NCBI GenBank assembly: GCA_964607485.1
Contig: CAZSKP010000004.1
Coordinates: 32,001-96,000, forward strand
Source: an uncultured bacterium
GTDB lineage: Bacteria; Abyssobacteria; SURF-5
Length of the DNA: 64,000 nt
Direction: 5' to 3'
Shown here: one piece after another, positions 17,855 to 58,665 of the stretch
Layout: every line of letters starts with the position of its first letter
How positions within the stretch are numbered: position 1 is the stretch's first letter
Program-made: the position numbers and the translations under genes
Notes under the pieces: generated by a model
Told to the model about the DNA's origin: nothing
Seen by the model: the letters and a program-made list of their open reading frames with translations, nothing else
Database searches by the model: none

Positions 17855-17908
17855 CCACCTATCCGATCGTTTAGCCATCGCTCCGGGCGACTCAATATCG
17901 CGTTTTCA
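17855..17908 (+). repeat. Dispersed intergenic repeat, core copy A (diverged)
   Basis: CCACCTATCCGATCGTTTAGCCATCGCTCC...CGTTTTCA matches the consensus CACCCATCCGATCGTTCAAATATCGCTCTCAGAGAGTGCA..ATACGTTTTCRATTCTGCACT. Confidence 0.55.
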
Positions 17909-18102
17909 GGCCGCCTTCGGACCCACGCGCCGGCGCGGGCTGCTTGGAAGCCGGAACACCGATGATGTATACTTGCCTGAGGGACGAAGAAGGGAAACTC
18001 CGGCTGACTGTGGTCTCGACACGGGGGGAAGCGTGTATTTGGTCGGTTGCAGTACGTTGTTCTGTTCCACAATGAGCGCGATTTCATAAAGGAGAGAAAC
18101 TC

Positions 18103-19329
18103 ATGGGCTCGGAGAAAGTGATTGTTCTTGGCGGTTGTGGCGCGGTGGGCAATGTTGCTGCAAGGACGCTCGCGGCGCAGGATATGTTCTCCAAGGTTAT
18201 CATAGGCGACATGGACATGGCCAAGGCCAAAACCATCGTTGCCGAAATCGGCCCGAAGAAGGCCTCGGCGGTGAAGGTCAACGCCGAGGACCCCAAGAGC
18301 GTGAGAAAAGCGATTGAAGGCTGTGACATCGTGCTGAATTGCGTCGGGCCATTCTATAAGAGCGTCAAGAGTGTTCTCACCGCGGTGATTGAGTCAGGGA
18401 TCAACTATGTGGACATATGTGACGACGTCGATGTGACCGTGGACATTCTGAAAATGGACAGAGCCGCAAAGAAAGCCGGGATTACCGCGCTCATCGGCAT
18501 GGGGGCGTCTCCGGGGGTCACGAATCTGTTCGCAAAATTCGTGGCGGACACGCTCCTCGATGAGACCGAGTCGATAGATATTTTCCATACCCACGGTGGC
18601 GAGCCCATAGAGGGCCCCGGCGTCATCGGCCACCGATTTCACTGCATGAGCATAGACATACCAATGTTCCTCGATGGAGAGCTGAAATACGTGAAATACT
18701 TCCGGGAGGACGGAATCGCGCTCAGACAGACCTTCGAGTTCCCCATCGTGGGCGAGGTTCCCCTGTACCCATATCCGCATCCCGAGCAGGTAACGCTGCC
18801 GAAATACATAAGAGTAAAGCGCGTCACGAACAAAGGCTCGGTGTTGCCGATCGAGTACTACACTCTCACCGGTGAAGTGTGCAGGCTGGGCCTCGCCGAC
18901 AGGGAGCCGCTCGATGTAAAGGGCAAGACAATCATTCCGTATGACTTTGCCATCGCCTATATCATCAGAGAGCGGGACAAAATCCTGAAGAGAACGAAGT
19001 TCGGCGTCCAGCGCGGTGCGATGGCGGTTGTCGTAAAGGGGAAGAAGAACGGAGAATATCAAGAGTATAGAGTGCATATGGCTTCCGAGGGGGCGGGACT
19101 GGGCGAAGGCACGGGCGAGCCCGCCGCCATGGGAGTGATTCTCATGCATCAGGGGAAGGTCACGGCCAAGGGCGTGCTGCCACCGGAGGGATGCGTGAAC
19201 CCCAACGACTTGATCAATCTGCAGGGCAGAATGAAGCGTGCCAAGATAAGAGGCAGGAAGAAGGCTGAACGAGTTCTTTACGCGGAAAAGGTCGATTCAC
19301 AGGGAAACGCGACGAGAATCGACTTTTGA
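18103..19329 (+). CDS. Saccharopine dehydrogenase family oxidoreductase
   Basis: 'VLGGCGAVG', 'NCVGPF', 'NYVDICDD', 'GMGASPG', 'HPEQVTLP', 'GVLPPE'. Confidence 0.88.
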   Translation: MGSEKVIVLGGCGAVGNVAARTLAAQDMFSKVIIGDMDMAKAKTIVAEIGPKKASAVKVNAEDPKSVRKAIEGCDIVLNCVGPFYKSVKSVLTAVIESGINYVDICDDVDVTVDILKMDRAAKKAGITALIGMGASPGVTNLFAKFVADTLLDETESIDIFHTHGGEPIEGPGVIGHRFHCMSIDIPMFLDGELKYVKYFREDGIALRQTFEFPIVGEVPLYPYPHPEQVTLPKYIRVKRVTNKGSVLPIEYYTLTGEVCRLGLADREPLDVKGKTIIPYDFAIAYIIRERDKILKRTKFGVQRGAMAVVVKGKKNGEYQEYRVHMASEGAGLGEGTGEPAAMGVILMHQGKVTAKGVLPPEGCVNPNDLINLQGRMKRAKIRGRKKAERVLYAEKVDSQGNATRIDF

Positions 19330-19386
19330 TCAAGAAGGGCGCTCTTCGCCGCCCTTACACATTCTCTACGATGCAGGAATGAATCA

Positions 19387-20964
19387 TTGAAGAACGACGT
19401 ATATATCCTTGCCTACGACCACGGCACATCGGGCGTTAAGACTTCCATCGTATCGAAACACGGGAAGGTAGTCGCCTCCGATTTCGAGAAGACACCCATA
19501 TACTTCTTGCCGAATGGAGGCGCCGAACAAGACCCGCAGGATTGGTGGAACGCCCTGCTCGCGACATCGAAACGGCTGGTGAGAAAGGGTGTGGTGCCTG
19601 CCGAAGACATTGCCGCAGTGTGTGTCTCAAGCACATTCTCCAGCACGGTCGCCGTGGACAGGCAGGGCAATCACCTCATGAACTCGCTCACGTGGATGGA
19701 CTCCCGTGGGACCCCATATGTGAAGAAGGCGATGGCCGGATTCCCCAGCGTCATGGGCTACGGGCTGTTCAAGGTCTTGCGATGGATTGCCAGGACCGCC
19801 GGAGCCCCGTCGCTGACAGGCAAGGATGATATTGCCCACGTGCTGCTTTGGAAACACGAGTTCGCACACGTATATGGAGACGCATACATGTTCCTCCCGA
19901 GCAAGGATTACCTGAACCTCAAGCTGACCGGTCAGTTTGCGGCGTCGTATGACTCGGTGCAACTGTTCTGGGTGACCGACACAAGGGATGTCAACAATAT
20001 CCGGTATGACGACACACTGATATCTCTGCTGGACATTGACAAGAACAAGCTGCCTCCTCTCAAAGCGTCCACCGACATACTCGGCACGCTGTCTCCCGCG
20101 GTGGCCGAAGAAATGGGCCTCGGCGCGGGCGTGAAAGTGGTGATGGGTTCGCCCGACCATCAGTGCGCCCTGATCGGCTCCGGCGCCGTCAGGGACTACG
20201 AGGGGCATATCTATATTGGCACTTCATCGTGGGTACAGTGTCCGATACCCTTCAAGAAATCCGATGCGTTCCATGCCATCGCCTCCTTCCCGACGGCGAT
20301 ACCGGGAAGGTATCAGAGCGTCAATGAGCAGGACCTTGCGGGCGGATGCCTGGGGTTCCTTGTGGACAACATCCTCTTCCACAAGAACGGTCTCGTCTCC
20401 AGCGAACCTCCTGAGAATCCTTATCAGCTCATGGACGAGATTGCCGAACGTGTCCCCGCCGGCAGCCACAAGCTCATCTTCACACCGTGGCTCAACGGGG
20501 AAAGGACGCCCGTTGACAGCGCCACCCTCAGAGGCGGGCTGTTCAACATTTCAAAAACCACGACTCTCGACCATATTATTCGAGCTTTCATGGAGGGAGT
20601 GGCATACAACACGCGCTGGAGCCTCAAATACGTGGAAGCATTCGTGAAGCGCAGCTTGAATCCGCTCAACATCGTCGGCGGCGGCGCAAAGTCGGACGTG
20701 TGGTGCCAGATTTTTGCGGATGTGCTCGACAGAGAGATTAGACAGGTACAGGATCCTTTGCAGGCGAACGCTCGCGGCGCGGCCTTCATCGCTTTGGTTG
20801 GATTGGGCGAAATTAGGTTCGACGATATTCCGAAATTGATTTCATACGAGAAGAGCTTCTCACCAAATCCGGGAAACCGTCAGCTTTACGATGAACTATT
20901 CGAGTCTTTCCTCCACATATACAAGAACAATAAGCGAATGTACCAGAGGCTGAACCGGCAGTAG
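19387..20964 (+). CDS. FGGY family carbohydrate kinase (xylulokinase-like)
   Basis: 'DHGTSGVK', 'AEQDP', 'TWMDSR', 'GERTP', 'GGGAKS..WCQIFADVL'. Confidence 0.9.
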   Translation: MKNDVYILAYDHGTSGVKTSIVSKHGKVVASDFEKTPIYFLPNGGAEQDPQDWWNALLATSKRLVRKGVVPAEDIAAVCVSSTFSSTVAVDRQGNHLMNSLTWMDSRGTPYVKKAMAGFPSVMGYGLFKVLRWIARTAGAPSLTGKDDIAHVLLWKHEFAHVYGDAYMFLPSKDYLNLKLTGQFAASYDSVQLFWVTDTRDVNNIRYDDTLISLLDIDKNKLPPLKASTDILGTLSPAVAEEMGLGAGVKVVMGSPDHQCALIGSGAVRDYEGHIYIGTSSWVQCPIPFKKSDAFHAIASFPTAIPGRYQSVNEQDLAGGCLGFLVDNILFHKNGLVSSEPPENPYQLMDEIAERVPAGSHKLIFTPWLNGERTPVDSATLRGGLFNISKTTTLDHIIRAFMEGVAYNTRWSLKYVEAFVKRSLNPLNIVGGGAKSDVWCQIFADVLDREIRQVQDPLQANARGAAFIALVGLGEIRFDDIPKLISYEKSFSPNPGNRQLYDELFESFLHIYKNNKRMYQRLNRQ

Positions 20965-21061
20965 CTTTCGACGAGAGGTTCTTGGAGAAGGTCTGGCGGT
21001 CAGCCGGCTCTACCATTGTTGCCTCGCCCCGTGCACGGAAAGGATTTCGCATGCTGCCAAG

Positions 21062-21133
21062 AGTGCAGCTTTCACCCATCCGACCGCATAATCTCGCTCT
21101 CAGAGAGCGAATATTTCGCTTTCGATCCTGCAC
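21062..21133 (+). repeat. Dispersed intergenic repeat, core copy B
   Basis: AGTGCAGCTTTCACCCATCCGACCGCATAATCTCGCTCTCAGAGAGCGAATATTTCGCTTTCGATCCTGCAC. Confidence 0.7.
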
Positions 21134-21352
21134 GATTCTGTCCTTCCATGAATGTCGATTCTTGGCGCATCACATGTTGTAGAACTTCTAGAGAAGCGAA
21201 TATGTGGCAACCCCGGCCGAAAGGGGCAAGATTTCCGTTTCTGAAGGATCTCTTCTGCCGGCTTATGGGAAATAACCGTCGCGGAATTGGGGAAGAACAA
21301 ATGAAATGTCCCCGGCTATGACGCACTCGACCTCGGCTTAGGGAAGGGCACT

Positions 21353-22624
21353 CTAGAAACAGAAATAGTGGACGATCTCTTTTGTCACGGTCACGAGGTC
21401 TTCGACGTAAACGAATTCGTCGGCGGCGTGAGCGCGAAGGTCGAACGCTCTGGCCACACCAAAATGGGCCACATTCAATTTCTGGGGACGCAACGCGTCG
21501 GCCACGCAGGCGAGGTCGGTGGAACCGCTCATACCGCCGAATACGAGGCTGTCGTACCCTTGGACAGTCTTGATCGCCTCCAGCATCTTGCGCACAGCCG
21601 GGGTGTCAATGTCCAACTCGACAGCACCATAACTGCGAATCGTCTCGAGCCCTAAGTCCAGAAGCTTGGACTTTTCTTTTCCCCTTCGAACGGCCTCCTG
21701 AACCTCGGCGACAACTTCATCGGGTTCTTCGTCCGGAATATAGCGACGGTCGATTGTGAGCGTGCATTCGGCAGGAATGATATTGACCTTCGTGCCGCTA
21801 TGCATGATGGTAAGGTTGAACATGGGAGTCATTTTGCCATGTTCAAACGGCGATTCCGGATTGGGAAAAGCAGGCACACGGGATTGCCTCTGCTCCACCT
21901 CTTTCTTCAGGGCAGTCAATTCGACAAGTATCGGCACCATCTCCTCCAGCGCGTTGACCCCGAGAAAATTCATGCCCGAATGACAACTCTTGCCCATGGC
22001 CGTCATCTTGAACTGTATGCTGCCTGCCGCCCCCATAGTATATGCAGGCTCGACCGCGGCAAGGTCAAGCCAAATCAGATGGTTGGAGAAGTATCCGTTC
22101 TTGGCCAGATAATCCGCCCCGCACTGATACTCTCCGCCTATCTCTTCGTCCGTGCACAGAAGCGTATCAATTGAAAACTTGGATTCGAGCCCAAGCTCGT
22201 GCATTACTTTGAGCGCGCCCAACACGCAGGCGATCGGCCCTTTGTCGTCGACCGAGCCGCGGCCATAAAGCTTGCCGTCTGCGACCTCGCCGCCGAAGGG
22301 ATCATGAGTCCATGAGCTGTCAGCCGGAACCACGTCGATATGAGCATAGACCGAAACTTTAGGTTTGTCGTTTCTCAGGCTGGCTATCAGGTTCTCTCTT
22401 GGGCCGAAAAGCCCCGCGGCATCCATCTTCTTCTTATCTTCCGGCACGAGGACTCTTTGAGTTTCGCACCCAAATTTTCTGAACTCAGGCGCCAGAAGGT
22501 CAAGAAACGGGCCGTAATTGCTGCCGGGCGGAACCGACGTGTCGATCCTGATCATCTCGCGCAGGATTTCGACCAGATAATGCTTTTCCATCTCAATTTT
22601 TCTTGAAACATCTTGCCAATCCAC
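21353..22624 (-). CDS. M20 family metallopeptidase/deacylase (ArgE/DapE-like)
   Basis: GTG start 22624 (RBS AGGAGGA). Motifs 'AHIDVVP', 'LYGRGSVDDKG', 'DEE', 'AHAADE'. Confidence 0.9.
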   Translation of the reverse strand: MDWQDVSRKIEMEKHYLVEILREMIRIDTSVPPGSNYGPFLDLLAPEFRKFGCETQRVLVPEDKKKMDAAGLFGPRENLIASLRNDKPKVSVYAHIDVVPADSSWTHDPFGGEVADGKLYGRGSVDDKGPIACVLGALKVMHELGLESKFSIDTLLCTDEEIGGEYQCGADYLAKNGYFSNHLIWLDLAAVEPAYTMGAAGSIQFKMTAMGKSCHSGMNFLGVNALEEMVPILVELTALKKEVEQRQSRVPAFPNPESPFEHGKMTPMFNLTIMHSGTKVNIIPAECTLTIDRRYIPDEEPDEVVAEVQEAVRRGKEKSKLLDLGLETIRSYGAVELDIDTPAVRKMLEAIKTVQGYDSLVFGGMSGSTDLACVADALRPQKLNVAHFGVARAFDLRAHAADEFVYVEDLVTVTKEIVHYFCF

Positions 22625-29601: not shown

Positions 29602-29727
29602 GGGGTTTTTTGCTGACAAGTGGCGCGAGTGATGTCGATTCAGGGACGCGCCCGCCGCCTTATCTCGGATCACGCGGACGCGATAGGCGCCGGAATAACA
29701 TCATTCTGAAGCGCCAAACCGACAAGG

Positions 29728-29795
29728 TTTTCCGCATCCGACCTTTCAAATACCGCTCCCCGTTGGTCGTGAGCTCGTCTTCGAAGCTCCATTCT
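29728..29795 (+). repeat. Dispersed intergenic repeat, core copy C
   Basis: TTTCCGCATCCGACCTTTCAAATACCGCTCCCC...CGTCTTCGAA. Confidence 0.55.
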
Positions 29796-30018
29796 CTGGA
29801 AGCACGCTTTTCTTCTGTCTGCCACGCGCTTCGGTCAAGACGCTGGCCCATCAGAAGGCGTTCTAGTAAGCAGAAGGATCCTGCAGCAGTGACTGGAGAG
29901 GGGAGCATGGAATCCAGAACCGATTTTCGCTTTCAAATTGCCCGACTTCTCGACCTCAAGACTAAAGCAATAGAATCCTTCCTAGTAAGTTCATTGCGCC
30001 TGTTCCCAATCCCGCATT

Positions 30019-31861: not shown

Positions 31862-32272
31862 ATGGGAGACGAAGGAAAACAGATAAGAGTACTGCTGGCT
31901 AAGCCGGGACTCGATGGTCATGACAGGGGCGTTCGTCTGGTGGCGCGCGCACTGAGAGATGCGGGAGTCGAGACAATTTTCCTCGGGCTTCAGGTAACTG
32001 CCGACCAACTGATCCAAGCCGCGATCGAGGAATCCGTCGACGTGATCGGCCTCTCAATCTTCTCCGGAGGGCATATGATACTCATTCCCCGGATAATAAA
32101 CGAATTGCGGAACAACGGTCTGGGAGACATACCCGTGATCGTCGGCGGGATCGTTCCTCCCGAGGATGCGGTTGAATTGAAGAGGCTTGGCGTAAAAGAG
32201 GTGTTCGGTCCTGGACGTCCCACGTCCGAAATCGTCTCCGCCTTCCGCCAATGGGCGCAAACTCCTCAATAA
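31862..32272 (+). CDS. Cobalamin-binding small subunit of the acyl-CoA mutase
   Basis: 'KPGLDGHDRG' (DxHxxG), 'GLSIFSGGH', 'VGGIVP', 'VFGPG'. Confidence 0.93.
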   Translation: MGDEGKQIRVLLAKPGLDGHDRGVRLVARALRDAGVETIFLGLQVTADQLIQAAIEESVDVIGLSIFSGGHMILIPRIINELRNNGLGDIPVIVGGIVPPEDAVELKRLGVKEVFGPGRPTSEIVSAFRQWAQTPQ

Positions 32273-32277
32273 GTGCC

Positions 32278-39601: not shown

Positions 39602-39655
39602 ACGATGAGAGCTACGAGTTGGCACATACCTTCACTGTTTTGAAGCAACGAAGAG

Positions 39656-39727
39656 TCAACCTTCCACCTATCCGATTCTTCAAGTATCGCTCTCAGAGAC
39701 TGCACACTTCGTCTTCTATTCTGCACT
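39656..39727 (+). repeat. Dispersed intergenic repeat, core copy D
   Basis: TCAACCTTCCACCTATCCGATTCTTCAAGTATCGCTCTCAGAGACTGCACACTTCGTCTTCTATTCTGCACT. Confidence 0.75.
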
Positions 39728-39826
39728 CATCTCCCAAACTCCTATTCTCCAGTAAGCATTTCTGGAAATGGAGAATATTTCTCTCTTCAAGGAAGAATCC
39801 CAGCTTCTTGTCGATGCCCCCTGGTC

Positions 39827-39896: not shown

Positions 39897-42158
39897 ATGT
39901 TATCCACAATGGCAGAAAGAAAAGAAGACAGGCTCGCTCACGGTAAATCACGTAGGAAGTTCTCTACTGTTGGCGTGATCGCACTGGCTATCGCTGCCCT
40001 GGCGTTGTGTTCAACCCAATCAGCCATGGCGGGCGACATCCCTGGAACCGGTAAGGACGCGGGGAAGACAGTAGTGTATCGCGACACGTGGGGCGTGCCT
40101 CATATCTTTGCGCCGACCGTCGAGGCGGGCGCGTACGCCATTGGCTGGGCCCAGGCGGAAGATAGACCGGAGGAACTCCTCAAAAATTTCCTTCGAGCCA
40201 TGGGTGAAGACGCAAAGGTTGAAGGCCCGGCATGGATCAAGTCGGATCTGGTGATGCGTGCGTGGAGGAACTACGAAGTCTCCAAAGAAAACGCTCACCG
40301 CATCCGGCCTGAAGTGCGTAAGATGCAGCAGGCCTGCGTCCGCGGCATCAACGATTATTATGCTGCGCATCCGGAGGATGTTCCGGAATGGTGGGGAACG
40401 CGCAAGGTCGATGAATACATGATGATCGCGTTTGGCCGATTATTTCTCTATAATTGGTCTTTTGAGCAGGCGTTTGCCGATTTGGCCAGGGGCGGCATAG
40501 AACCCGGCATAGAGCCGATAAAGCATGGCTCGAACGAGTTCGCCGTCTCACCCGCCAGGAGCGCAGAGGGAGCGGCGATTCTTGCTATCGATCCGCATCT
40601 TTCGTGGTGGGGTTTGACTCGCTTCTGGGAGTTCCGCATTCATGCAGGCGAGCTCAACGGAAGCGGCTTCACTCTGCCCGGTTTTCCGAACATTGGGCTC
40701 GGCCATACCGACTATCTCGCCTGGGCGATGACCACCGGTGGGCCCGATACTGCCGATGTGTATGAACTCACCCTCAACGCGAATAACCCCTCGAAATATC
40801 TCTACGACGGCGAATGGAGGCAGATGACTTCACGTGACATAACGATAGAAGTGAAAGGAATGGAACCACAGCATTTCAGGGTCTACTACTCGCACTATGG
40901 CCCTGTCGTGGCCCAGAAGAACGGTAAAGCCTATGCCGCGAAAACCGCCTACGCCGATTGTGTCCAGGCGGGTGAGGCATGGTATGAACTGAACTTCGCA
41001 AAAGATTATCGGGGTCTTATCGCCGCGGCGGACACACTCCAGCTCTACCCGCAGAACGTCATGGTCGCCGATACCTCCGGCAATATTTTCTATGAGCGCG
41101 TGGGGCGCGTGCCCCGCCGGCCGGCGGGATTCGACTGGTCGCGGCCGGTCAACGGATCGACATCGGCGACCGAATGGCAAGGGTTTCATCCGGCCTCTGA
41201 CTTTGTTCAGATACTCAATCCGTCGCAAGGATACATGCAGAACTGCAACGTTCCGCCTGATGTGATGATGGTCGGCAGTCCCCTCACGCCCGGGAAGACG
41301 CTGCCCTACCTGTATGGCGACCTGATCTACGGTCCGCTCAGTGGCTGGATAACTTCACGCGGTGCCCGGGCGGTCGAGCTGCTTCAAGCCGACGACTCGG
41401 TGACTGCGCAAGAAGCCAAATCATATATTCTGGATGTTCGCCCGGCCGGTATTGATCGATGGCTTGAGGTCTTGAGGAACGCGGACGCAAAATTCGGTGC
41501 AGCGCATAAGGACGACAGCGATTACGTGGCAGGCATCAAAGAAATGAAAGCCTGGAATGGCGAGCTTCGGCGCGATTCATCAGCCGCCTTGAAGTACTAC
41601 TATTGGAAGAAGCAGCTCTTCGAGGATTACGGAACCGATCCTTCGGCAATTGAATTGGCCGGGCGCATCGATGACCTGCTTGGCTCAGTGGGTGCTCCCG
41701 CTCCAGAATTGAATTTGACGGACGACCAGCTTGCGGCCCTCGCCGACGCCTTTGCCTCGGCCATGGCAAGCCTGAAGGCCGACATGGGCTCGCTCGACGC
41801 GAAATATGGCGACATGTTCCGCGTGGGGCGAGACGACAAGTCCTGGCCTGTAGGCGGTGGAGGTCCCAATAATCTGGGTATGCGAACGCTCCGTAACGTG
41901 GAATATGGACCCGAACGGCCAGACCATACTCGCTGGGGCAGTGGTGGCCAGACCTCAACGCAGATCGTCGTCATGAGCAAACCCGTGAGGAGCTGGACCG
42001 CTGTACCGATTGGGCAAAGCGACCGACCGGAGTCGCCGCATTACAACGATCAGGCCGAAAAGCTCTTCAGCAAGCGCACGCTGAAACCCACGTGGTACGA
42101 CCCTGAAGAGCTGGCAGGCCACATAGAATCACGCACCGTTCTCGACCGGGCACCTTAA
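39897..42158 (+). CDS. Penicillin acylase family Ntn-hydrolase (exported)
   Basis: Signal-peptide-like N-terminus; 'YRDTWGVPHI', 'GWAQAEDR', autoprocessing 'GSNEF', 'DPHL', 'SPHYNDQ'. Confidence 0.9.
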   Translation: MLSTMAERKEDRLAHGKSRRKFSTVGVIALAIAALALCSTQSAMAGDIPGTGKDAGKTVVYRDTWGVPHIFAPTVEAGAYAIGWAQAEDRPEELLKNFLRAMGEDAKVEGPAWIKSDLVMRAWRNYEVSKENAHRIRPEVRKMQQACVRGINDYYAAHPEDVPEWWGTRKVDEYMMIAFGRLFLYNWSFEQAFADLARGGIEPGIEPIKHGSNEFAVSPARSAEGAAILAIDPHLSWWGLTRFWEFRIHAGELNGSGFTLPGFPNIGLGHTDYLAWAMTTGGPDTADVYELTLNANNPSKYLYDGEWRQMTSRDITIEVKGMEPQHFRVYYSHYGPVVAQKNGKAYAAKTAYADCVQAGEAWYELNFAKDYRGLIAAADTLQLYPQNVMVADTSGNIFYERVGRVPRRPAGFDWSRPVNGSTSATEWQGFHPASDFVQILNPSQGYMQNCNVPPDVMMVGSPLTPGKTLPYLYGDLIYGPLSGWITSRGARAVELLQADDSVTAQEAKSYILDVRPAGIDRWLEVLRNADAKFGAAHKDDSDYVAGIKEMKAWNGELRRDSSAALKYYYWKKQLFEDYGTDPSAIELAGRIDDLLGSVGAPAPELNLTDDQLAALADAFASAMASLKADMGSLDAKYGDMFRVGRDDKSWPVGGGGPNNLGMRTLRNVEYGPERPDHTRWGSGGQTSTQIVVMSKPVRSWTAVPIGQSDRPESPHYNDQAEKLFSKRTLKPTWYDPEELAGHIESRTVLDRAP

Positions 42159-46155: not shown

Positions 46156-46599
46156 TTATCGATAAGGAAAGAGGCTGCGCTTGAAGTCGTCAAGTTGATT
46201 GAGGAGTTTCAAGTGCTTGGATTCGTCTTCAAGCAAATATGTGAGGAGATACCTGATCTCAAATAGTCGACTGTCGCGAATCGCTTCCTGCGCGATATCC
46301 ACTGACTTATGCTCGATCCCGTGGTAGCCTTCCACCAAATCCCATATTTCCACCAGCTCGTCCGGCGTCAGGTGAAGTGCCTCCTTTGTAAGGCTATCTC
46401 TAATAAGCTTCAGAACTTCAATATGCGACTCTGAATCTCTTCGGATTATTTCAGCGATCATTTTTATCAAAGTATTCTTGGTTCTTTTCTGAACTTCGGT
46501 GCATGTTTTTGCTGAAAGTGATTCCATCTTCTGCCATTTGTCCAAGTCAACAAGAAATCGCTCCTTCTTCTCAGCAGACTCCAATGACTTCCTTGGCAT
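46156..46599 (-). CDS. Ferritin-like four-helix-bundle protein (hypothetical)
   Basis: Two E..(D/E)xxH units: 'QKME....IIRRDSESH' and 'HGIE....LLEDESKH'. Confidence 0.65.
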   Translation of the reverse strand: MPRKSLESAEKKERFLVDLDKWQKMESLSAKTCTEVQKRTKNTLIKMIAEIIRRDSESHIEVLKLIRDSLTKEALHLTPDELVEIWDLVEGYHGIEHKSVDIAQEAIRDSRLFEIRYLLTYLLEDESKHLKLLNQLDDFKRSLFPYR

Positions 46600-46934
46600 G
46601 ATCAATCACCCTTTCTTGCCACAGTTCACCTCGCAAGAGTTTTCGGGTTACGGCTCCAATCGTGCGGACGTTCTCCCCATGTCCAGCCAAACCAGGGAAA
46701 ACTCTTGAGAAGGCTGAGGCGCCCCTATAAAACTGAGGCAACACACCCTAAACCATTGGCCTAAGAGCCTTTATTCCTTAGCCCGTTCTGACACCCTCGC
46801 CAGTTGGTAGCTCTGGCCTTGAACATGCGCACATTAATTATACCATGATCTATTGAGCTGTGGCGTATCCGGTGACAATTTGAGAAAAAACAATAGATTT
46901 GCTCATATATTAATTATTTCCAATTTTTGGAAAA

Positions 46935-47005
46935 TCAACCTTCCACCCATCCGATCGTTCAAATAGCGCCCTCAGAGAGTGCATAATACGTTTTCAATTC
47001 TGCAT
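46935..47005 (+). repeat. Dispersed intergenic repeat, core copy E
   Basis: TCAACCTTCCACCCATCCGATCGTTCAAATAGCGCCCTCAGAGAGTGCATAATACGTTTTCAATTCTGCAT. Confidence 0.8.
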
Positions 47006-47116
47006 TTTATGAGATGGCGTCTTCCCCCGAAAGGGTAGCCCAATAGGATCTCTTGCTTTGAACATCGTTCTGGAGCCGTTTCAGGCCTTAGAAGAGGCAG
47101 GTGCGTCGAATAACCA

Positions 47117-48034
47117 TTAGAGACTATTCAGTTTGGTGAACAGGTCGCGAAAGATCGGGTCGCGATGGACATAGGTGGCATAGCGGATAAGATGCCGGCT
47201 GCCATCAAAACTCCAGGTGAGTTCATCGGTCACAATCGGGCTGTTGACCAACTCTGTCGGTACCCAATTGTCGTTGATGAGGTAGGCAATGGCGGAGATA
47301 TCCCAGATGATTTTAGACCAGCCAAAGTGGTCTGTATGATACCCTTTAACAGTCTCCACCAGGTAATTTCCTAACTCACTCCTGCCGAGGACAAAAGCCT
47401 CAAGCTCAGGGACCGTGGTCTGCAGGTGAGACGCGACACCCATGGCGGGAATATGAACCAGCGGCACGCCGCAATCGAAGATAAGCCGCGAGGCCGGCAC
47501 GTCCTGCCATAAATTGAATTCCTGCGTATGCGGCCAGTGCAGGGCATGCCCGCCCAACCAGACAACCACAATCCTGTCGACAATCTCAGGCTCCATGAGA
47601 ATTGCGGAAGCCACATTGGTGATGGCCCCGATAGCGACGACATAGAGCAGGTCATCCGCTGACGCGGCCATAGCCCGCGCCACCAGATTTGATGCGGCCT
47701 CACTATCCTGAGGCTGAAGGTTGGCGTTAAGGTAGGCGGTCGATCCCCTATAGGCAAAATCTTCTGCGGGCCACTGCATTTTACTTAACAGCCTGATAAT
47801 CTCCTCATAGCTTTTTTCCATGCCGTCTGCCGGTCCCGAAGACCGGTCGTTGTGGAACGGTGCGGCGTAGATCGCTTCAACCGCCAGCCGGTCCGGCGAC
47901 AGCAGCGCATAGACCAGGGCAAACTGATCGTCAACTTCATTATAAGTATCCGTATCAAGTACCATCCGTACCTTATTCGTTGGCGGCTGCAACCGAGCCA
48001 GGCGCGCCGATTCAGAAATGGTCGGAAATTTCAC
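47117..48034 (-). CDS. Nucleoside hydrolase (IU-NH family)
   Basis: 'VLDTDTYNEVDDQFAL', 'IGAITNVA', 'EFNL', 'IWD'. Confidence 0.88.
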   Translation of the reverse strand: MKFPTISESARLARLQPPTNKVRMVLDTDTYNEVDDQFALVYALLSPDRLAVEAIYAAPFHNDRSSGPADGMEKSYEEIIRLLSKMQWPAEDFAYRGSTAYLNANLQPQDSEAASNLVARAMAASADDLLYVVAIGAITNVASAILMEPEIVDRIVVVWLGGHALHWPHTQEFNLWQDVPASRLIFDCGVPLVHIPAMGVASHLQTTVPELEAFVLGRSELGNYLVETVKGYHTDHFGWSKIIWDISAIAYLINDNWVPTELVNSPIVTDELTWSFDGSRHLIRYATYVHRDPIFRDLFTKLNSL

Positions 48035-48275
48035 TATCTCTTCACCTTTCAGAAGGTAACCCGTTGTTGATGAATATAAGAGTCGTGCCCAAAAAGCCTC
48101 GATGCGCGCGTGGCGTTTGATGCGTCGCCATTATAGCCACTGCGTTTCCACTTTATCAGTAGCTTTGTTGCAAGCAGAACATGAAGGAACTCTGTAAATG
48201 ATCTATTCCTCCAGCGGCCTTGCGAAGCACATCTACTAAGCCTGCGTATTAGGCGTCTCCATGAGCATTGCATAT

Positions 48276-48387
48276 GAGCGCGGGGAATAGATTCCTGAGA
48301 ATACAGTGAGAACCTTCACTTTCCCGGCCATCCGATCGTTCAAATGGCGTCCTCAGGTAGTGCGCAATACGTATTCAACTCTTGACT
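48276..48387 (+). repeat. Dispersed intergenic repeat, copy F (upstream arm + core)
   Basis: AATAGATTCCTGAGAATACAGTGAGAACCTTCACTTTCCCGG-CCATCCGATCGTTCAAATGGCGTCCTCAGGTAGTGCGCAATACGTATTCAACTCTTGACT. Confidence 0.8.
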
Positions 48388-48411
48388 GGCTTTACAAGGC
48401 CGATTCTATCG

Positions 48412-49578
48412 CTATAGCGGTATCGTCAGTTCGTCAAGGGTCTCGGGCGCTTCGGTGAGCTTCGCGTTTCCCGTGTCGGTAATCAGCACCGTGTCGGAGT
48501 GTCGGAAGCCGCCCACGCCCTCTATGTAGATCCCCGGCTCGATGCTGATCATCATTCCCGGCACGAGTTCGCGCTCGTCGCCGAGAGCGACATACGGGGC
48601 CTCATGGCCGGTTATTCCCATACCGTGACCCGTTCGGTGGATGATGTTATGGCCGTAGCCCGCATCTGCAATGACTTTGCGCACTCTCTTGTCTATCTCG
48701 CTCAGAACTGCGCCGGGTTTCGCCATGTCATAGGCAAGCGCCCTTGCCTCCATGGAAACCTCGAAAGGCCTTTTTGCGTTTTCGGGCACGTGGCCGAGGA
48801 AAAATGTCCTCTCGATCTCTACGCCGTAACCGTCAATCTGTCCTCCTACGCCGGAGACATGCGGGCCGCCCTCCTCCATGGGAAGGAACGGGGTAGGCAC
48901 AAAATGCGGGTCGTGCGACTTTGATGGAGGCAGGACCATCGCTACGGGCTTGGTGACAAAGTAATTGCAGTCCGGGATGTCTTCGAGAATTTTTTCCATC
49001 AGGAATCGTTGGACTTCGGTAAATACGAACATCTCCAATGCGCCCGGTCTTGCAACCTCGAGCAGCACCTTGTGTCCCTCGCTTATGATCCCACAGGCAT
49101 GTACGTTCCGTCCGATTTCGTATTCCGTCTTGACAAGGCGAACCTCATCGATGATGTCGTCGACTATCTGCTCTCCGGGCGTTTTCTTGGAGATATGAAT
49201 TGGCATGGCGCCTTCGATTCCCACGAGGGCATCGTTCTCGATCAGAAGTTGATACACCTCGAACCAGTTCTCGCCTTTCGGGGCGGGAAACTCATAGTAT
49301 GTTACATAATCCAGTTCTATCCGCGCCCGTGTCTTAACATGGGCTGCCTCCAGAAGGGGACACACCATGTTCGGCGCTCCACTATTCGATATCACCAGGA
49401 GAAAGGGCCGCTCGTGCACATAATTGGCGAAGTTGGTAAGGTAATAGATGTTCACCGGATCGAAGGAGACATAGTAGTCCAGGTTTCTTTCCCGCATCAA
49501 CGCTCTTACCTTCTCCAGACGACCGGTGAGTTCCTCCTCGGTTGGAGGTGACGCTATCGGCTTTGGTGTTTCGCTCAT
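48412..49578 (-). CDS. M24 family Xaa-Pro peptidase/creatinase-like protein
   Basis: 'NIYYLTNF', 'EIERTF', 'HRTGHGMG', 'HEAP', 'SIEPGIY', 'GFRHSDTV'. Confidence 0.9.
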   Translation of the reverse strand: MSETPKPIASPPTEEELTGRLEKVRALMRERNLDYYVSFDPVNIYYLTNFANYVHERPFLLVISNSGAPNMVCPLLEAAHVKTRARIELDYVTYYEFPAPKGENWFEVYQLLIENDALVGIEGAMPIHISKKTPGEQIVDDIIDEVRLVKTEYEIGRNVHACGIISEGHKVLLEVARPGALEMFVFTEVQRFLMEKILEDIPDCNYFVTKPVAMVLPPSKSHDPHFVPTPFLPMEEGGPHVSGVGGQIDGYGVEIERTFFLGHVPENAKRPFEVSMEARALAYDMAKPGAVLSEIDKRVRKVIADAGYGHNIIHRTGHGMGITGHEAPYVALGDERELVPGMMISIEPGIYIEGVGGFRHSDTVLITDTGNAKLTEAPETLDELTIPL

Positions 49579-49735
49579 GGCTTCCTCCGATAATCCTTAT
49601 CTTAAGCCCCAACGTCTATGAGTTTTCCCTCATTGATTTAGAATATCATATCATATTGGACAGCCCTGCAAATGGCAGTGCGAACAATCCAGTTCCGTGT
49701 CAAACCTCGCCGTTTCCCTTACCTCTCGGAGGGAA

Positions 49736-49793
49736 ATCCGACCTTTTAGATATCGCTCTGAGAGAGTGTAAAAGACGTTTTCGATTCTGCACT
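49736..49793 (+). repeat. Dispersed intergenic repeat, core copy G
   Basis: ATCCGACCTTTTAGATATCGCTCTGAGAGAGTGTAAAAGACGTTTTCGATTCTGCACT. Confidence 0.75.
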
Positions 49794-49900
49794 AGTTACG
49801 ACCTTTCCCATAAAGCATTCTTGCTCTTTACGAAACTGAAGGACACCCATCTCACTAGGGTCGGGATGACCTCAAATCTGATGCTGCCTAGGGTTGAGAT

Positions 49901-51444: not shown

Positions 51445-51495
51445 AGTTGCAGTAGGTCTAATCGTTCGAAATCGCGGCCAAAATCTCCAACTCTA

Positions 51496-51666
51496 CCACC
51501 GGTCCGATCGTTCATTGGTGAGTTTCAATTCTTGACTGATTTTCGCTTATCAAGAACCGAATTCTCAGCCTCCAGAAGCGTAGAATTCCCCCCTCCCTGA
51601 GAAGTTTCTTCGCCCCTCCAAATCTCAAACTCTCAGTGGCAAGATCCCTTTGCATTCTGATATACT
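51496..51666 (+). repeat. Dispersed intergenic repeat, copy H (internally deleted core + downstream arm ending in TGaTATACT)
   Basis: CCACCGGTCCGATCGTTCA....TTTCAATTCTTGACTGATTTTCGC ... TGCATTCTGATATACT. Confidence 0.6.
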
Positions 51667-52499: not shown

Positions 52500-52514
52500 T
52501 AGATCGCAGATTCT

Positions 52515-52612
52515 AAGATTCCCCGGAATAACAGTTGAAAACTTCACTCCGCCGTTTTTCCATAGGTGCACATTTCACCCATCCGATTGCCTAAATATCG
52601 CTCTCAGCTAGT
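52515..52612 (+). repeat. Dispersed intergenic repeat, copy I (upstream arm + partial core)
   Basis: AAGATTCCCCGGAATAACAGTTGAAAACTTCACT...GTGCACATTTCACCCATCCGATTGCCTAAATATCGCTCTCAGCTAGT. Confidence 0.75.
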
Positions 52613-52741
52613 CCAGACCGAGATGCAGCTCCCATCCTTTCAATTTCCTAAATTTCGTCTTCGCTCATTTTGGGCAACCTCTCCCTATCTTGACTCTTGA
52701 ACGGAACGGCACCTGCCAGCCTGCTATGCTTGTGCTGGCGG

Positions 52742-54843: not shown

Positions 54844-55003
54844 GCCAACACCCATTCAGCAACAGAAGCGGACGAGATAGATTTCTGAGAATACTTGTTA
54901 AACGCTTCACTTCTCCGGCTTTTATGAAAGTGCACATTTCACCCATCCGATTGTGCAAACGTTGCTTTCCGCTAATGCAGATAACGTTTTCGACTCTGCA
55001 CTG
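54844..55003 (+). repeat. Dispersed intergenic repeat, copy J (long upstream arm + core)
   Basis: ACCCATTCAGCAACAGAAGCGGACGAGATAGATTTCTGAGAATA...GAAAGTGCACATTTCACCCATCCGATTG...CGTTTTCGACTCTGCACT. Confidence 0.8.
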
Positions 55004-55302
55004 AGTCTCTGGTCTTCGAAGGCTAGTTCTTCGCCTCGAGAAGGAGAGAATTCCACCGTTCCCGCCAGAAAACTTCACACCCGATTACATCCCCGATTCA
55101 TGGAAAGCCGGCTCATATGATCGGGTTTGACTTGACCCATTGTTGTGGTATGATATTCTTTCAGATTTGCCGTTAGCGACCTCGTAGCCGTGTCCCGGGA
55201 GGGGATACCATGGCGCAGGGGTTGTTATCATAGAGAAAAGGTGAAAGACAAAATTCAGGACTGGATTTCAAGCGCGCGCGTCTGCCCCGCACGCTTTTCC
55301 CC

Positions 55303-56478
55303 ATGACCCCAAAAGAACGCGTCCGTACCGCTATTGCGCACAGAGAACCTGACAGGGTTCCCGTGTTCGAACTCACCATCAACTCGCCGGCCGCCTCTGA
55401 TATCATGGGACGCCAAATGTACGTCGGCTTTGGCGGATGGCTCGTCGCCAAACAGTTCTCCGAATGGATGGCCGAGGGACGCAGCCTCGAGCTGGCGGTC
55501 AAGATATTCCAGGATACGATCAAGCTGTACGAACACCTCGAACTCGATATCTTCCCGCTGCCCACGCTTCCCCTGACCGACGAGTCGGTGGAGCCCGTGG
55601 GCGAGAACCGCTGGCGCTACACCGATCCGGCCTCCGGCTTCTGGCGCGTCATCACCTACGAGCCCGGTTCCGATTACCATGGCGAGATCGACTCGAAGAT
55701 CAAGCGGGAGGGCATGCCCGCCCTGCGGCAATACGTCGAGCACCTGGAGCAAAACCCGTCGATCGTATCGCCCGAGCTGGCCGCCGGCCTGAAGGCAGTC
55801 CTCGAGCCCGCGACCGAGCGGTTCTTCGTGCTGGGCCAGGCCGACGTGCTGCTGCCGACCGGCGAGAGCTGGTTTCCGCTGTTTCTCGAAGCGATGGCCC
55901 TCGAGCCCGAGTTGATCGAACGATACGTCGAGGTGACCACCACGTCGATGCTCGACCTGATCGACGCACAGGTCGAGGCGGGCGCCGACGGGTTCATCGG
56001 CGGCACCGATATCGCGCACCACACGAACACGATGTTCTCGCCCGCCATGTTCCGGCGCTTCATGGCACCGCAGCTCCGTCGCATAACGGAGCGGTGCCAC
56101 GCGCACGACGTACCGTTTTTCAAGCACACCGACGGCAACATCGCCGCCATCGAAGAGGACTTGCTGCTCGGCTGCGGAATCGACGGCTACCACGCGATCG
56201 AGCCGACGGCGGGCATGGACATCGCACGGCTCAAGAAGACGTATGGCGATAAGCTCACGCTGCTCGGCAACATCGACTGCGGTTCCCTGCTGACCGAGGG
56301 GCCGCCCGGGCGGATCGTCGATGCCGTGCGCCGATGCATACGCGATGCCGCGCCAGGCGGCGGATATGTGCTCAGCTCGAGCAACTCGATCCACAGCGGC
56401 GTGCCGACCGAGCACTTCCTCACGATGCTGCGGGCCGCGCGCGAGTATGGGACATATTCGATCGGAGCCGTGTCGTGA
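55303..56478 (+). CDS. Uroporphyrinogen decarboxylase (URO-D/MtaA-CmuA) family protein
   Basis: 'MTPKERV..AI.HREPDRVP', 'FSPAMFRRF', 'KHTDGN', 'LLGNIDC', 'PGGGYVLSSSNSIH'. Confidence 0.88.
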   Translation: MTPKERVRTAIAHREPDRVPVFELTINSPAASDIMGRQMYVGFGGWLVAKQFSEWMAEGRSLELAVKIFQDTIKLYEHLELDIFPLPTLPLTDESVEPVGENRWRYTDPASGFWRVITYEPGSDYHGEIDSKIKREGMPALRQYVEHLEQNPSIVSPELAAGLKAVLEPATERFFVLGQADVLLPTGESWFPLFLEAMALEPELIERYVEVTTTSMLDLIDAQVEAGADGFIGGTDIAHHTNTMFSPAMFRRFMAPQLRRITERCHAHDVPFFKHTDGNIAAIEEDLLLGCGIDGYHAIEPTAGMDIARLKKTYGDKLTLLGNIDCGSLLTEGPPGRIVDAVRRCIRDAAPGGGYVLSSSNSIHSGVPTEHFLTMLRAAREYGTYSIGAVS

Positions 56479-56542
56479 GCGATCTCGGGAGAAATTGCGA
56501 AAAACATAACTCTGTTTATCCATCTGTGGAGTTGGGAAAGAA

Positions 56543-57868
56543 ATGGAAAAGCTCGGCATGAATGAAAAGTCCCCGGCAGTGAAGCCCGGCAACAAGATGT
56601 TGAGGCTGGCCGCTGTAATTCTTCTTGTCCTCTTCGGATTTGTCCTGTTGATACTTGTCAAGACAAATCCGGGAAAGATGTGGAAGATATATACATTCTT
56701 TGACGAAGGCAAGAGGATCGAGAATTTCCGCCACTTAGAGCAAATCATGCCTGCCAAGAGGATAAGACGGTCGGGGTCGAAACACGAATTCGCGCGAAAT
56801 ATCCGCGAGCTCAACAAGACATATGAATTCAGGGGCGAGACCAGGAGTGTGGGCGGGTTCCTCGATCGAACCGTGACCACGGGATTTCTTGTCGTCAAGG
56901 ATGACGAGATCGTGACCGAAAAATATTTTCTCGGTGCGACTGAAGAGACGATGTTCACTTCGATGTCTGTGGCGAAATCGTTCGTGTCGGCGCTTGTCGG
57001 AATAGCGATCGATGAGGGATTTATCAAGGACGTCGATGATTCCATAACCGATTACGTCACCACCCTGAGAGGCTCAGGATACGACGGTGTTCCCATCAAG
57101 CATGTCCTTCAGATGTCATCCGGCGTGAAGTTCAACGAGGTATACGATGACCTGTTTTCGGACATCAACCTGCTCTTCTATAAAGTGTTCGGGTTGGGCC
57201 AGCCTATGGATGACTATATGGCAGGCCTCGGTGCCGAAAGTCCATCCGGCGAAACCAGTTATTACAGGAGCTGCGACACACAGGCGCTTGGCATGCTGAT
57301 CTCGGCGGCAACCGGGAAGTCGGTCTCAGAATACCTCGAGGAAAAAATCTGGGGCAGAATCGGAATGGAACATGATGCATTCTGGTCCACAGACGATCAT
57401 GGAACGGAGATAGCCTTCGGATTCCTGAACGCGGCGCTCCGCGATTATGCGAAATTCGGCACGCTGTACTTACACGGTGGAAGCTATAATGGCGAACAGA
57501 TCGTTTCCAAGGAATGGGTATCGGAATCCGTCACGCCGGATAATCCTCACCTTCAGCCGGGAGAAAAACCCAAAGGATACGAGACTTTCGGCAATTTCGG
57601 ATACCAGTACCAGTGGTGGATCCCAGACAATCCTGACGGTGAGTATTTGGCGATCGGAGTCTGGGGGCAATACATATATGTCTATCCGAAAGAAAACCTT
57701 GTTATTGTCAAAACGAGCGTCGATCCAGATTTCGAAGCGAACAATTATGAGCATGATGATGAAACTGTGACGCTCTGCCGCTCGATTGCGGCATTTCTCC
57801 GTGAGAATCACGCGGCAAACGACATGGAGCAAGCGAACCTGTCGGTCCCAACAAACGAATCGGAATAA
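56543..57868 (+). CDS. Serine hydrolase, beta-lactamase/AmpC-like family (membrane-anchored)
   Basis: SxxK 'SMSVAKS', 'LQMSSG', 'YRSCDT', 'GYQYQWW', 'GVWGQY'. Confidence 0.9.
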   Translation: MEKLGMNEKSPAVKPGNKMLRLAAVILLVLFGFVLLILVKTNPGKMWKIYTFFDEGKRIENFRHLEQIMPAKRIRRSGSKHEFARNIRELNKTYEFRGETRSVGGFLDRTVTTGFLVVKDDEIVTEKYFLGATEETMFTSMSVAKSFVSALVGIAIDEGFIKDVDDSITDYVTTLRGSGYDGVPIKHVLQMSSGVKFNEVYDDLFSDINLLFYKVFGLGQPMDDYMAGLGAESPSGETSYYRSCDTQALGMLISAATGKSVSEYLEEKIWGRIGMEHDAFWSTDDHGTEIAFGFLNAALRDYAKFGTLYLHGGSYNGEQIVSKEWVSESVTPDNPHLQPGEKPKGYETFGNFGYQYQWWIPDNPDGEYLAIGVWGQYIYVYPKENLVIVKTSVDPDFEANNYEHDDETVTLCRSIAAFLRENHAANDMEQANLSVPTNESE

Positions 57869-57890
57869 ATGGAACCACTGCCTTCCATCC

Positions 57891-58040
57891 GCCACTACCC
57901 ATTCAGCAATATAAGCGGAAGAAATAGTATCTGAGAATATTGTTGAAAGTGTGACTTTTTTTGCCTCTCTGAAAGTGTGACTTTCACCCATCCCATCGTT
58001 CAAATATCACTCTCAGCCAGTGAAGTTTGCGTTTTCACCT
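57891..58040 (+). repeat. Dispersed intergenic repeat, copy K (long upstream arm + core)
   Basis: ACCCATTCAGCAATATAAGCGGAAGAAATAGTATCTGAGAATA...GAAAGTGTGACTTTCACCCATCCCATCGTTCAAATATCACTCTCAGCCAGTG...CGTTTTCA. Confidence 0.8.
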
Positions 58041-58071
58041 CCGCGTGAACATATTCCCGGCCAAGCACCTG

Positions 58072-58286
58072 CTATCCATGCAGCGTTCGATCAGGGCTTT
58101 GGTATTGAATCGCTCCGGAGATGTGTTCGGCGCGGATGGTGTCGCTCTCGGCCAAGTCGGCGAAGGCGCGGACGACATTGAGGATGCGGTCGAGCAGCGG
58201 GCCGGAGATCTGCCGAGATACCGCTGCACCTGCCACGGCTGGCACGTGCATTCTTTTCTCGGATCGTCCAAATGTCCACAAAGGCA
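58072..58286 (-). pseudogene. comM: 3' relic of comM with a frameshift and an internal deletion
   Basis: CLCGHLDDPRKECTCQPWQVQRYLG, a frameshift near 58211, then ISGPLLDRI joined directly to LNVVRAFADLAESDTIRAEHISGAIQYQSPDR. These are ComM Zn-finger and C-terminal motifs. Confidence 0.85.
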
Positions 58287-58665
58287 GCCATGTAGGACGT
58301 TTGTGTCGAAAATGGTGCCTATCCAATCCAATTTCCTCTCTCGCTGAGGGTATTCTACCCTTTCAAAGCTTTCCTTGTCACTAGTCGCAAAAGCCGTCCC
58401 CTGGGCTCTACAAATCGTGAAGATTTTTGATTAAACTCTTCAAGTTCGCCCGTCTGCCATGCCTCGCAAATTGGAGTGAATACGGCACTTACGGCGACGG
58501 TGAAGAATACCCGCTTTCCGAAATCAGACCTTCAAAATCATCCGTCTGGTTTGCCTCAGGAGGAGGCAAAATTCGGCAACTCTTTGTTTTGGCTGTCCTT
58601 ACGTGGTGGTCAGTACGGTTATTCTATGATATAATTCTGTTCGCTTGAAGGAGGTGGTAAACAAC

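Follow-up and report, generated by a model that had tools for sequence, protein, structure and literature searches.

The 64,000 nucleotides analysed here (the window; positions 32,001 to 96,000 of contig CAZSKP010000004.1, from an uncultured bacterium of the SURF-5 lineage of the Abyssobacteria) contain a family of non-coding intergenic repeats at which gene order differs from that of related genomes, and which bracket single genes that recur between copies of the same repeat in other genera. We tentatively take the repeat to be a protein-bound border element, across which gene modules would be exchanged conservatively by an enzyme encoded elsewhere and acting in trans; this is the reading we favour, without calling it probable. 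Its main rival is a control or boundary module, followed by an old mobile element served by enzymes resembling the REP-associated tyrosine transposases (RAYT; REP, repetitive extragenic palindromic sequence), and an RNA gene is unlikely. The source genome (G000) is a 4.70-Mb draft of 93 contigs with 57.4% GC, and the window (G000:C4:32001-96000) has 54.6% GC. All genomes compared are drafts from metagenomes, and gene calls are crude open reading frames (ORFs) throughout.

A sequence-only reading of the window had listed twelve starts of a degenerate repeat, and all were recovered on the plus strand when a sequence-only covariance model (R1) was scored at each position: ten at E values of 1.5e-30 to 7.4e-07, and two marginally, at about 0.015 (51493-51550 and 58317-58384). 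The next-best matches in the window, considering both strands, have E values of at least 0.14 and are noise. Independent repeat finding returned families of five to six copies together with the upstream arm that had been proposed to be common to several of them (54844-54880 and 57891-57927, 84% alike), and a 23-base piece of the core gave three window matches with at most three mismatches, compared with none in 100 shuffles. Genome-wide, an nhmmer profile made from the copies and iterated once found 57, 49, 43 and 31 matches in G000 at E<0.1, 1e-3, 1e-5 and 1e-10, respectively, and none at E<10 in the reversed genome that served as decoy. The placement between genes that had been described for the window also holds for the genome, where 41 of the 43 copies at E<1e-5 lie outside ORFs of at least 200 aa, such ORFs making up 84% of the contigs concerned; the other two overlap ORFs that have no Pfam family. 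The parts of the repeat unit, from 5' to 3', are the far-left arm, the left arm, dyad A and its spacer, the 78-nt core and dyad B.

The association with module borders emerges from 25 loci of four relatives, selected around copies. Gene pairs separated by a repeat had both homologues in G000 in none of 35 cases, compared with 24 of 221 other gene pairs, of which 16 are neighbours there as well; individual genes had a good G000 homologue in 15 of 61 cases beside a copy and in 63 of 220 elsewhere. When the 500-nt flanks of all copies were compared with each other, four copy pairs shared the upstream flank only and eight the downstream flank only, and none of these 12 shared both. Every mapped break of homology between loci coincides with a repeat, and one block of 7.5 kb, with a copy inside it in a relative, could be aligned on one side only. 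Of six pairs with a common downstream flank, five are alike above background in the right arm of dyad B and not in the remaining core. One example occurs on contig C9, where about 140 nt on the 3' side of two copies are present only twice in the genome (G000:C9:84895-85043 and 75830-75972, 87% identical over 137 nt); the two copies agree at 11 of 12 positions in the right arm of dyad B and at 61% in their bodies and cores, and the alignment reads as a mosaic joint near dyad B. As judged from such alignments, the break points lie inside or at the edge of the repeat and not at a single base, and the inferred crossover position relies on a handful of copy pairs.

Three repeat-bracketed units, carrying a 376-aa gene, a 377-aa DAO oxidoreductase gene and a 149-aa gene, occur in two genera each, with different outer neighbours. 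The 376-aa gene is bracketed by repeats in G000 (C9) and in the relative G005, and stands without copies in the relative G006; about 105 nt of promoter-like upstream DNA of its own are kept in all three genera. The DAO gene is bracketed in G006 and G005, its products being 90% identical, and the unit as a whole is 83% identical over 1,619 nt between the two genera, with homology that begins inside one copy and stops about 26 nt into the next. The 149-aa gene is shared between the window (46156-46605) and G006, at 93% identity. In G006, six co-oriented copies, 1.0-1.8 kb apart, alternate with single genes of alternating strand that encode a DAO oxidoreductase, a URO-D-like protein, a methyltransferase, an amidase and the 149-aa protein. 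Module sizes range from single genes up to operons of 10 kb. The accretion of gene cassettes had been suggested from the window, and with respect to borders this idea is supported by the lack of conserved pairs and doubly shared flanks, the three moving units and the six-copy array. The G006 array (locus L029, G006:C3, 4955-9401) adjoins an end-joining cluster of the order Ku-Ku-LigD(primase-polymerase)-LigD(ligase).

In the reading we favour, the dyads and their fixed spacings would be binding sites for a dimeric DNA-binding protein. Gene modules would be acquired, dropped or put in a new order at the repeat. Two direct copies would release the module between them as a circle, to be re-inserted at another copy, so that recombination at or within the repeat would move promoter-bearing modules conservatively. 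The enzyme would be encoded elsewhere, the first candidates being the housekeeping Xer-type tyrosine recombinases acting at dyad B and the second a protein of a kind not recognised here; within dyad B, the centre is asymmetric and best kept, lies at the sharp edge of the element and is the most plausible place for a cut. The constant spacings and the dyads of the consensus suggest a nucleoprotein complex. Conservative exchange would explain the co-oriented clusters, the bracketing of genes on either strand and the lack of near-identical copies, as well as why bracketed units turn up in new contexts and why homology breaks at the repeat. The exchange may be site-specific, or it may proceed via short conserved blocks that serve as homology. 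Efficient homologous recombination requires a minimum length of identity, and the identical runs between copies in G000 are short (the longest run per pair is 11 nt at the median and 24 nt at most), which argues against efficient exchange of the RecA type.

Several observations weigh against this reading. Homology breaks at no single point, some breaks being near dyad A and others near dyad B, and with such scattered break points a sloppy or homologous exchange is the better fit, compared with one fixed crossover site. With one exception, the copies flanking orthologous units show no more similarity than random pairs do, and co-inheritance of repeat bodies with their flanks was not seen except for the youngest unit. 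Excision products, empty sites and polymorphism between strains were not seen in the sample of 11 genomes, which come from a single phylum and are drafts throughout. The orientation of copies tracks the direction of genes, with 28 co-oriented and seven opposed copies in tandem gaps. Dyad B is unlike the described dif sites of Acinetobacter plasmids (PMC6449649), since its centre is 7-9 nt long and best kept. With respect to the enzyme, none of 277 proteins in and around the clusters (41 in the window, 186 elsewhere in G000, 50 in relatives) has a transposase, integrase or resolvase domain, and they represent ordinary metabolic, transport and signalling genes; the sequence-only reading had advised looking for a recombinase or HUH gene beside the least-diverged copies, and none was encountered. 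Serine recombinases (PF00239) are present in none of the ten genomes of the family. Tyrosine recombinases (PF00589) in these genomes comprise Xer-like pairs and a few phage-type genes, and none is located on a repeat-bearing contig, the one exception being a fragment below threshold (24.4 bits) on G000:C19, some 21 kb away from a copy. This leaves no candidate enzyme apart from the housekeeping Xer pair. Insertion sequence (IS) genes are few in G000 and are found on C72 and C1, mostly on one small contig; a dense group on C72 (about 1.4-8.4 kb; rve, DDE_Tnp_1 and two IS110-type genes) accounts for most recognisable transposases of the genome.

The copies in the window and the features that belong to them are listed here in window coordinates, with E values from the R1 scan or from the nhmmer search as indicated.

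17848..17908, plus strand: partial copy, mid-core only (model positions 73-133 of 168; R1 E 1.4e-10), flanked by an adhE-like gene (minus) and a saccharopine-dehydrogenase-like gene (plus).

21046..21147, plus strand: copy without left arm (R1 E 4.2e-20), in a convergent gap, 82 nt past the stop of a co-oriented FGGY kinase gene.

29724..29802, plus strand: weak, diverged core copy (R1 E 7.4e-07; nhmmer E 0.0023), following a co-oriented acetoacetate-decarboxylase-family gene and preceding a mutase operon.

39612..39737 (R1 scan 39620-39737), plus strand: copy (nhmmer E 9.7e-23), 11 nt past the stop of a co-oriented gene of the major facilitator superfamily (MFS) and about 160 nt ahead of a penicillin-amidase gene.

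46156..46605, minus strand: cargo gene of 149 aa without a Pfam family, the counterpart of the gene in the G006 array.

46880..47018 (R1 scan 46880-47017), plus strand: full copy (nhmmer E 1.7e-25), between the 149-aa gene and a nucleoside-hydrolase-like gene (47117-48034, minus).

47117..49578, minus strand: two single-gene modules (nucleoside-hydrolase-like; M24 peptidase), each bracketed by plus-strand copies.

48272..48394, plus strand: copy with dyad A deleted internally (nhmmer E 3.5e-15), flanked by two minus-strand genes.

49691..49807 (R1 scan 49697-49807), plus strand: copy (nhmmer E 1.4e-16) in the divergent gap between the M24 peptidase gene (minus) and a response-regulator gene (plus).

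51493..51550, plus strand: marginal copy (R1 E 0.016, 10.3 bits), seen by eye to have the ends of the core without its middle, and not recovered in the genome-wide profile and model searches.

52514..52618, plus strand: copy cut at the 3' end (nhmmer E 3.4e-20, profile 3-106), located 16 nt past the stop of a co-oriented hydrolase gene; of the unit it retains the left arm, dyad A and the core's first half.

54844..55015 (R1 scan 54862-55015), plus strand: best full-length copy, with far-left arm (nhmmer E 4.8e-29; R1 E 1.5e-30), flanked by two minus-strand genes.

54906..54934: dyad A of that copy, half-sites 54906-54913 and 54927-54934, with a pyrimidine-rich spacer between them.

54974..55002: dyad B of that copy, arms 54974-54983 and 54993-55002, at the sharp 3' edge.

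57891..58050 (R1 scan 57909-58050), plus strand: full-length copy with far-left arm (nhmmer E 5.8e-26), after a co-oriented beta-lactamase-fold gene (56543-57868).

58317..58384, plus strand: marginal, strongly diverged core-like stretch (R1 E 0.014, 10.5 bits).

The anatomy was derived from an alignment of 48 copies from G000 and its relatives. The 3' side ends sharply, conservation dropping to random in two columns, and the 5' side fades. The core has a length of 78 nt in 42 of the 48 copies; the left arm extends about 60 nt to its 5' side, with dyad A between the two, and only some copies also have the far-left arm (about 45 nt or more), which among these reaches up to 100% identity across 27-41 nt. 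The total of about 150-220 nt agrees with the earlier view that the unit is longer than its core. Modules also occur alone, as core-only copies, as left-arm-only copies and as about ten solo 3' cores (the last ~32 nt). Four left-arm-only copies follow each other in the same orientation around a large PAS histidine-kinase gene on contig C65, where one of these copies is overlapped by a weak rve-like fragment that scores 21.5 bits, under the cut-off (G000:C65:6604-6908). At consensus level both of the dyads that had been pointed out exist, but the one reading CTCTC-A-GAGAG is not kept in many copies. The half-sites of dyad A are complementary in 72.4% of cells, compared with 30.9-49.2% when slid against each other, and its pyrimidine-rich spacer measures 10-11 nt in most of 73 aligned copies. 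A spacer of such uniform length and composition is the ground on which we rejected a pair of abutted transposon ends with target DNA between them. Dyad B has arms of 10-11 nt that are 64.6% complementary, compared with 24.2-44.2% when slid, and its 7-nt centre (7-9 nt) is the best-kept stretch of the repeat, with 44-48 of 48 copies agreeing in each column. Single columns kept to this degree beside random ones indicate ongoing constraint, and the copies are not scars of cassette accretion. The contrast is unlike the neutral decay of an old burst and, as far as the alignment can tell, points to purifying selection on each copy; what is constrained appears to be the DNA sequence and its spacing, as would be expected if a protein binds there.

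A multicopy non-coding RNA had also been proposed for the repeat; it could be a small RNA gene, or a leader or trailer RNA with structure. One orientation relative to neighbouring genes and the sharp 3' edge would agree with it, but the remaining evidence does not. A comparison with Rfam was empty at gathering scores for the window and at E<=1 for 18 copies, the folds of single sequences are unremarkable (z of -0.28 to -1.77), RNAalifold placed no pairs in 26 copies, and mutual information revealed no covarying column pairs and no helix; a conserved fold, of RNA or of DNA, is absent. Nor do the dyads covary, the observed pairing being reached by 89 of 500 shuffles for dyad A and 368 of 500 for dyad B, and hairpins at either dyad were rejected since the complementarity resides in the consensus and covariation is absent. 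A sigma-54 or sigma-70 promoter was rejected as well, no site recurring in the copies by eye or in a consensus scan, and no intrinsic terminator recurs among them. We consider an RNA reading highly improbable. A coding role was rejected with the best frame open in merely 28 of 48 cores, and an RNA of the TnpB type with no TnpB in G000.

The 43 copies of G000 are distributed over 13 contigs and are clustered, with 24 neighbour pairs no more than 10 kb apart, compared with a mean of 3.4 and a maximum of 10 in 1000 random placements. Neighbours within 20 kb are co-oriented in 25 of 29 pairs. A single orientation is correct for the window but not for the genome, where contig C7 has runs of minus, plus and minus copies and C31 has both orientations. 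The repeat neighbourhoods (3 kb on each side) have a GC content of 53.6%, compared with 57.4% for the genome. The flanking ORFs (crude ORFs of at least 110 aa) were classified for 67 copies from G000 and relatives, of which 28 lie in tandem gaps co-oriented with the genes, seven in tandem gaps with opposed orientation, 19 in convergent and 13 in divergent gaps; as background, these contigs have 438 tandem, 122 convergent and 117 divergent gaps in all. A copy points the same way as its upstream gene in 47 of 67 cases, the profile starting a median of 71 nt past the stop of that gene, and the same way as its downstream gene in 41 of 67, at a median distance of 209 nt. The far-left arm lengthens copies by about 45 nt towards that stop, which implies that many copies abut the stop codon. 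The sign of the local GC skew matches the orientation for 30 of 37 copies; this skew flips every 20-40 kb inside contigs, and thus mirrors local gene direction and not replichores. As to the genes concerned, penicillin-amidase paralogues are found in the window (39897-42158) and at G000:C31:6323-8983 and G000:C9:79374-81548, two of the three with a repeat copy directly upstream in the same orientation. One copy (G000:C19:20137-20240) lies 228 nt upstream of a leucyl-tRNA synthetase gene, and copies are therefore not restricted to accessory genes.

The ties between copy orientation and the neighbouring genes, together with a 5' end near a co-oriented stop, hint at a transcription-linked role. 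In line with this hint, the repeat might be a cis-acting intergenic control module, for example a boundary or insulator, a factor-dependent terminator of the upstream gene or a platform for a family-specific regulator, whose copies would each be under selection for that function and would serve only passively as short homology for shuffling, as is thought for the T4-type phage promoter/stem-loop repeats and the neisserial mosaic repeats. Such a module would account for the bias towards co-oriented tandem gaps and upstream genes and for the position just past the stop codon. The middle of the element, with 33-35% C and 10-13% G on the plus strand and no structure, is C-rich and G-poor in the manner of rho-utilisation sites, which are likewise unstructured. 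Star-like divergence with strong per-site constraint suits independent functional sites, and the variable break points and the lack of a nearby recombinase also fit. Against this, none of the four gap types is free of copies, 13 lying in divergent and seven in opposed tandem gaps, and no single terminator or promoter role fits six co-oriented copies between genes of alternating strand. The co-orientation of neighbouring copies (25 versus 4) is stronger than their link to genes, and neither a sigma-70-like promoter nor an intrinsic terminator recurs. Most identical runs (median 11 nt) fall short of what efficient homologous recombination needs, and the spread of a module of 150-200 nt to new genes is left unexplained. 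Taken together, we regard a control module as possible but doubtful.

The phylogenetic range of the repeat is narrow. Among 41 genomes searched, R1 found matches at E<=1e-6 in all ten members of the family, which represent eight genera (43, 20, 16, 11, 8, 6, 3, 2, 2 and 1 copies), and none in one sister-family genome or in 30 genomes from other phyla. Plasmid and phage collections contain no match to the repeat. In metagenomes, relatives of the bracketed M24 peptidase are encoded (37-66% identical) at 37 loci, all without a copy, and these loci together with three genome loci gave no repeat match at E<=0.001 in 242,913 bases. The passages searched in the founding description of the phylum (PMC6121073) contain no mention of repeats, transposases, integrons, mobile elements or intergenic DNA. 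The copies are about equally alike within genomes (mean identity 62-73%) and between genomes (66%), the most similar pair inside G000 being 76% identical, and the nearest neighbour of a copy is in its own genome for 20 of 48 copies, compared with 17.4 with shuffled labels. With no near-identical copies, there is no sign of recent copy-paste or of concerted evolution. Two genomes of one genus have DNA that is merely 73-90% identical, and one of the two assemblies breaks beside a repeat.

These data bear on a further reading, in which the repeat is an old and slow non-autonomous element of the REP, BIME (bacterial interspersed mosaic element) or ERIC kind that would be mobilised in trans by RAYT-like HUH transposases, with a strand-preferring insertion between genes; its link to gene-order breaks would in that case follow incidentally from its location in variable regions. 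G000 has three paralogous RAYT-like HUH genes (G000:C2:11161-11940, C6:82082-82750 and C38:33131-33811), which are 56-57% identical to each other and score 67.6-78.4 bits with NF047646 at a cut-off of 80. Their homologues have the same spread as the repeat, being present in ten of ten family genomes and absent from the one sister-family genome. Modules that occur alone and the agreement between skew sign and orientation also suit such an element. A 427-aa gene (75% identical; G000:C50:18397-19812 and L048:1215-2720 in the relative G002) has a copy at its 3' end in both genera, but in opposite orientation, which suggests independent arrivals. On the other hand, near-identical copies are missing, there are no covarying hairpins of the kind that single-strand HUH enzymes use, and no pairs of terminal inverted repeats are seen. 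Five Y1_Tnp matches have no repeat copy in their loci of 4-5 kb (best E 0.39), and the number of RAYT-like genes is unlinked to that of repeats, with one gene and 20 repeats in one genome and three genes and one repeat in another. The skew, finally, reflects local gene direction. As for the strand-biased non-autonomous element that had been envisaged from the window, orientation follows genes and local skew without a demonstrable replichore, and recent transposition is not apparent; in the RAYT-served form we judge it unlikely.

With respect to known systems, the repeat lacks the defining properties of attC sites, REPINs, miniature inverted-repeat transposable elements (MITEs), dif and res sites and Rfam families, and belongs to the lineage-specific mosaic intergenic repeats; it is a lineage-specific, non-coding, intergenic, multi-copy mosaic with separable modules, as are BIME, NIME (neisserial intergenic mosaic element) and ERIC. 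Within this group it is unusual in being non-palindromic, clustered, co-oriented and tied to module borders. If the border reading is right, it would work like the arrays of integrons and of attC-site clusters without an integron-integrase (CALIN), and like the dif modules of Acinetobacter, with site-bounded units and the enzyme elsewhere, and evolve like ERIC, with its sequence kept across genera and its positions not. ERIC, or IRU, of the Enterobacteria is a non-coding, intergenic repeat of about 130 nt, present in tens of copies and kept across the genera of one family; it forms one long imperfect palindrome, is dispersed in either orientation, and occupies chromosomal positions that differ between species. 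To our knowledge it has no transposase, and its function is unsettled. In contrast to ERIC, the repeat described here forms no palindrome as a whole, its copies cluster in accessory zones, and within a cluster they point the same way. The neisserial mosaic elements and the T4-type promoter/stem-loop repeats bracket small accessory units and are thought to provide portable homology; hairpins or promoters can be recognised in them, and their exchange takes place among close strains, whereas the copies here are about 65% alike and have neither a recognisable promoter nor a hairpin.

REPs are palindromes of 20-40 nt, paired as hairpin-forming REPINs and present as many near-identical copies that flank a RAYT gene (PMC3337134, PMC3116915). 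The present repeat resembles REP, BIME and REPIN in being intergenic, lineage-specific and modular, and RAYT-like genes occur in every repeat-bearing genome. We rejected a REP or REPIN because the repeat forms no palindromic hairpin, has no near-identical copies and is missing from the surroundings of RAYT-like genes. Cury et al. (2016, PMC4889954) describe attC sites as defined by a palindromic structure that folds, their sequence being little conserved, and cassettes as mostly promoterless and co-oriented. The likeness to integrons and CALIN lies in co-oriented arrays of sites around single genes, units in varied contexts, no integrase nearby, and sites that may be chimeric between neighbouring units (PMC4889954). 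The differences are that sequence is conserved here and structure is not, that genes lie on either strand, one unit having a promoter-like region, and that modules reach 10 kb. An attC site was rejected on the conserved sequence together with the lack of RNAalifold pairs and of covarying columns, and an integron integrase since none is found beside the arrays by a PF00589 search, the IntI-specific domain not having been searched. In keeping with the earlier statement that no terminal inverted repeats or attC boxes were seen, the copies are direct and have no fold of the attC type.

The dif modules of Acinetobacter plasmids are moved by XerC/XerD at 28-bp sites (11+6+11) with a more variable 6-bp centre, and a described module is flanked by inverted sites (PMC6449649). 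The similarities are dyad-bounded units in varied contexts, a housekeeping recombinase that would be encoded elsewhere and one arm that is better kept; the differences are that dyad B lies inside an element of 150-200 nt and that the sites are direct repeats on a chromosome. An end of a MITE or an IS was rejected, the copies being direct and not inverted pairs, with no adjacent transposase and few IS genes, on C72 and C1. A res site of serine recombinases (~120 bp, with three dimer-binding subsites) was likewise rejected on the absence of PF00239 from the ten family genomes, several dyads in about 150 nt being a mere resemblance.

A stronger form of the border reading, which we put forward as speculative and rather unlikely, would be an integron-free chromosomal gene-cassette system of one family of the Abyssobacteria, with promoter-bearing modules on either strand and a composite site of 150-200 bp, containing two putative protein-binding dyads and an accessory arm. 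Its recombinase would be encoded elsewhere, possibly as the Xer pair, and low-GC zones would be built from units shared between genera. If the border reading is true, the repeat would represent a second, integron-independent way of packaging chromosomal accessory genes into exchangeable units, in a lineage of deep-subsurface and sediment bacteria known only from metagenomes. If it is instead a control module, it would be an unusually long and well-kept one, with a family-specific putative binding protein. In practical terms, the repeat breaks assemblies of this family and marks its variable gene pool.

Two further repeats occur in the window, a separate 69-nt direct repeat at 11904-11972 and 13841-13909 (80% alike, 1.9 kb apart) and a near-tandem 35-nt repeat at 6080-6114 and 6119-6153 (80% alike).

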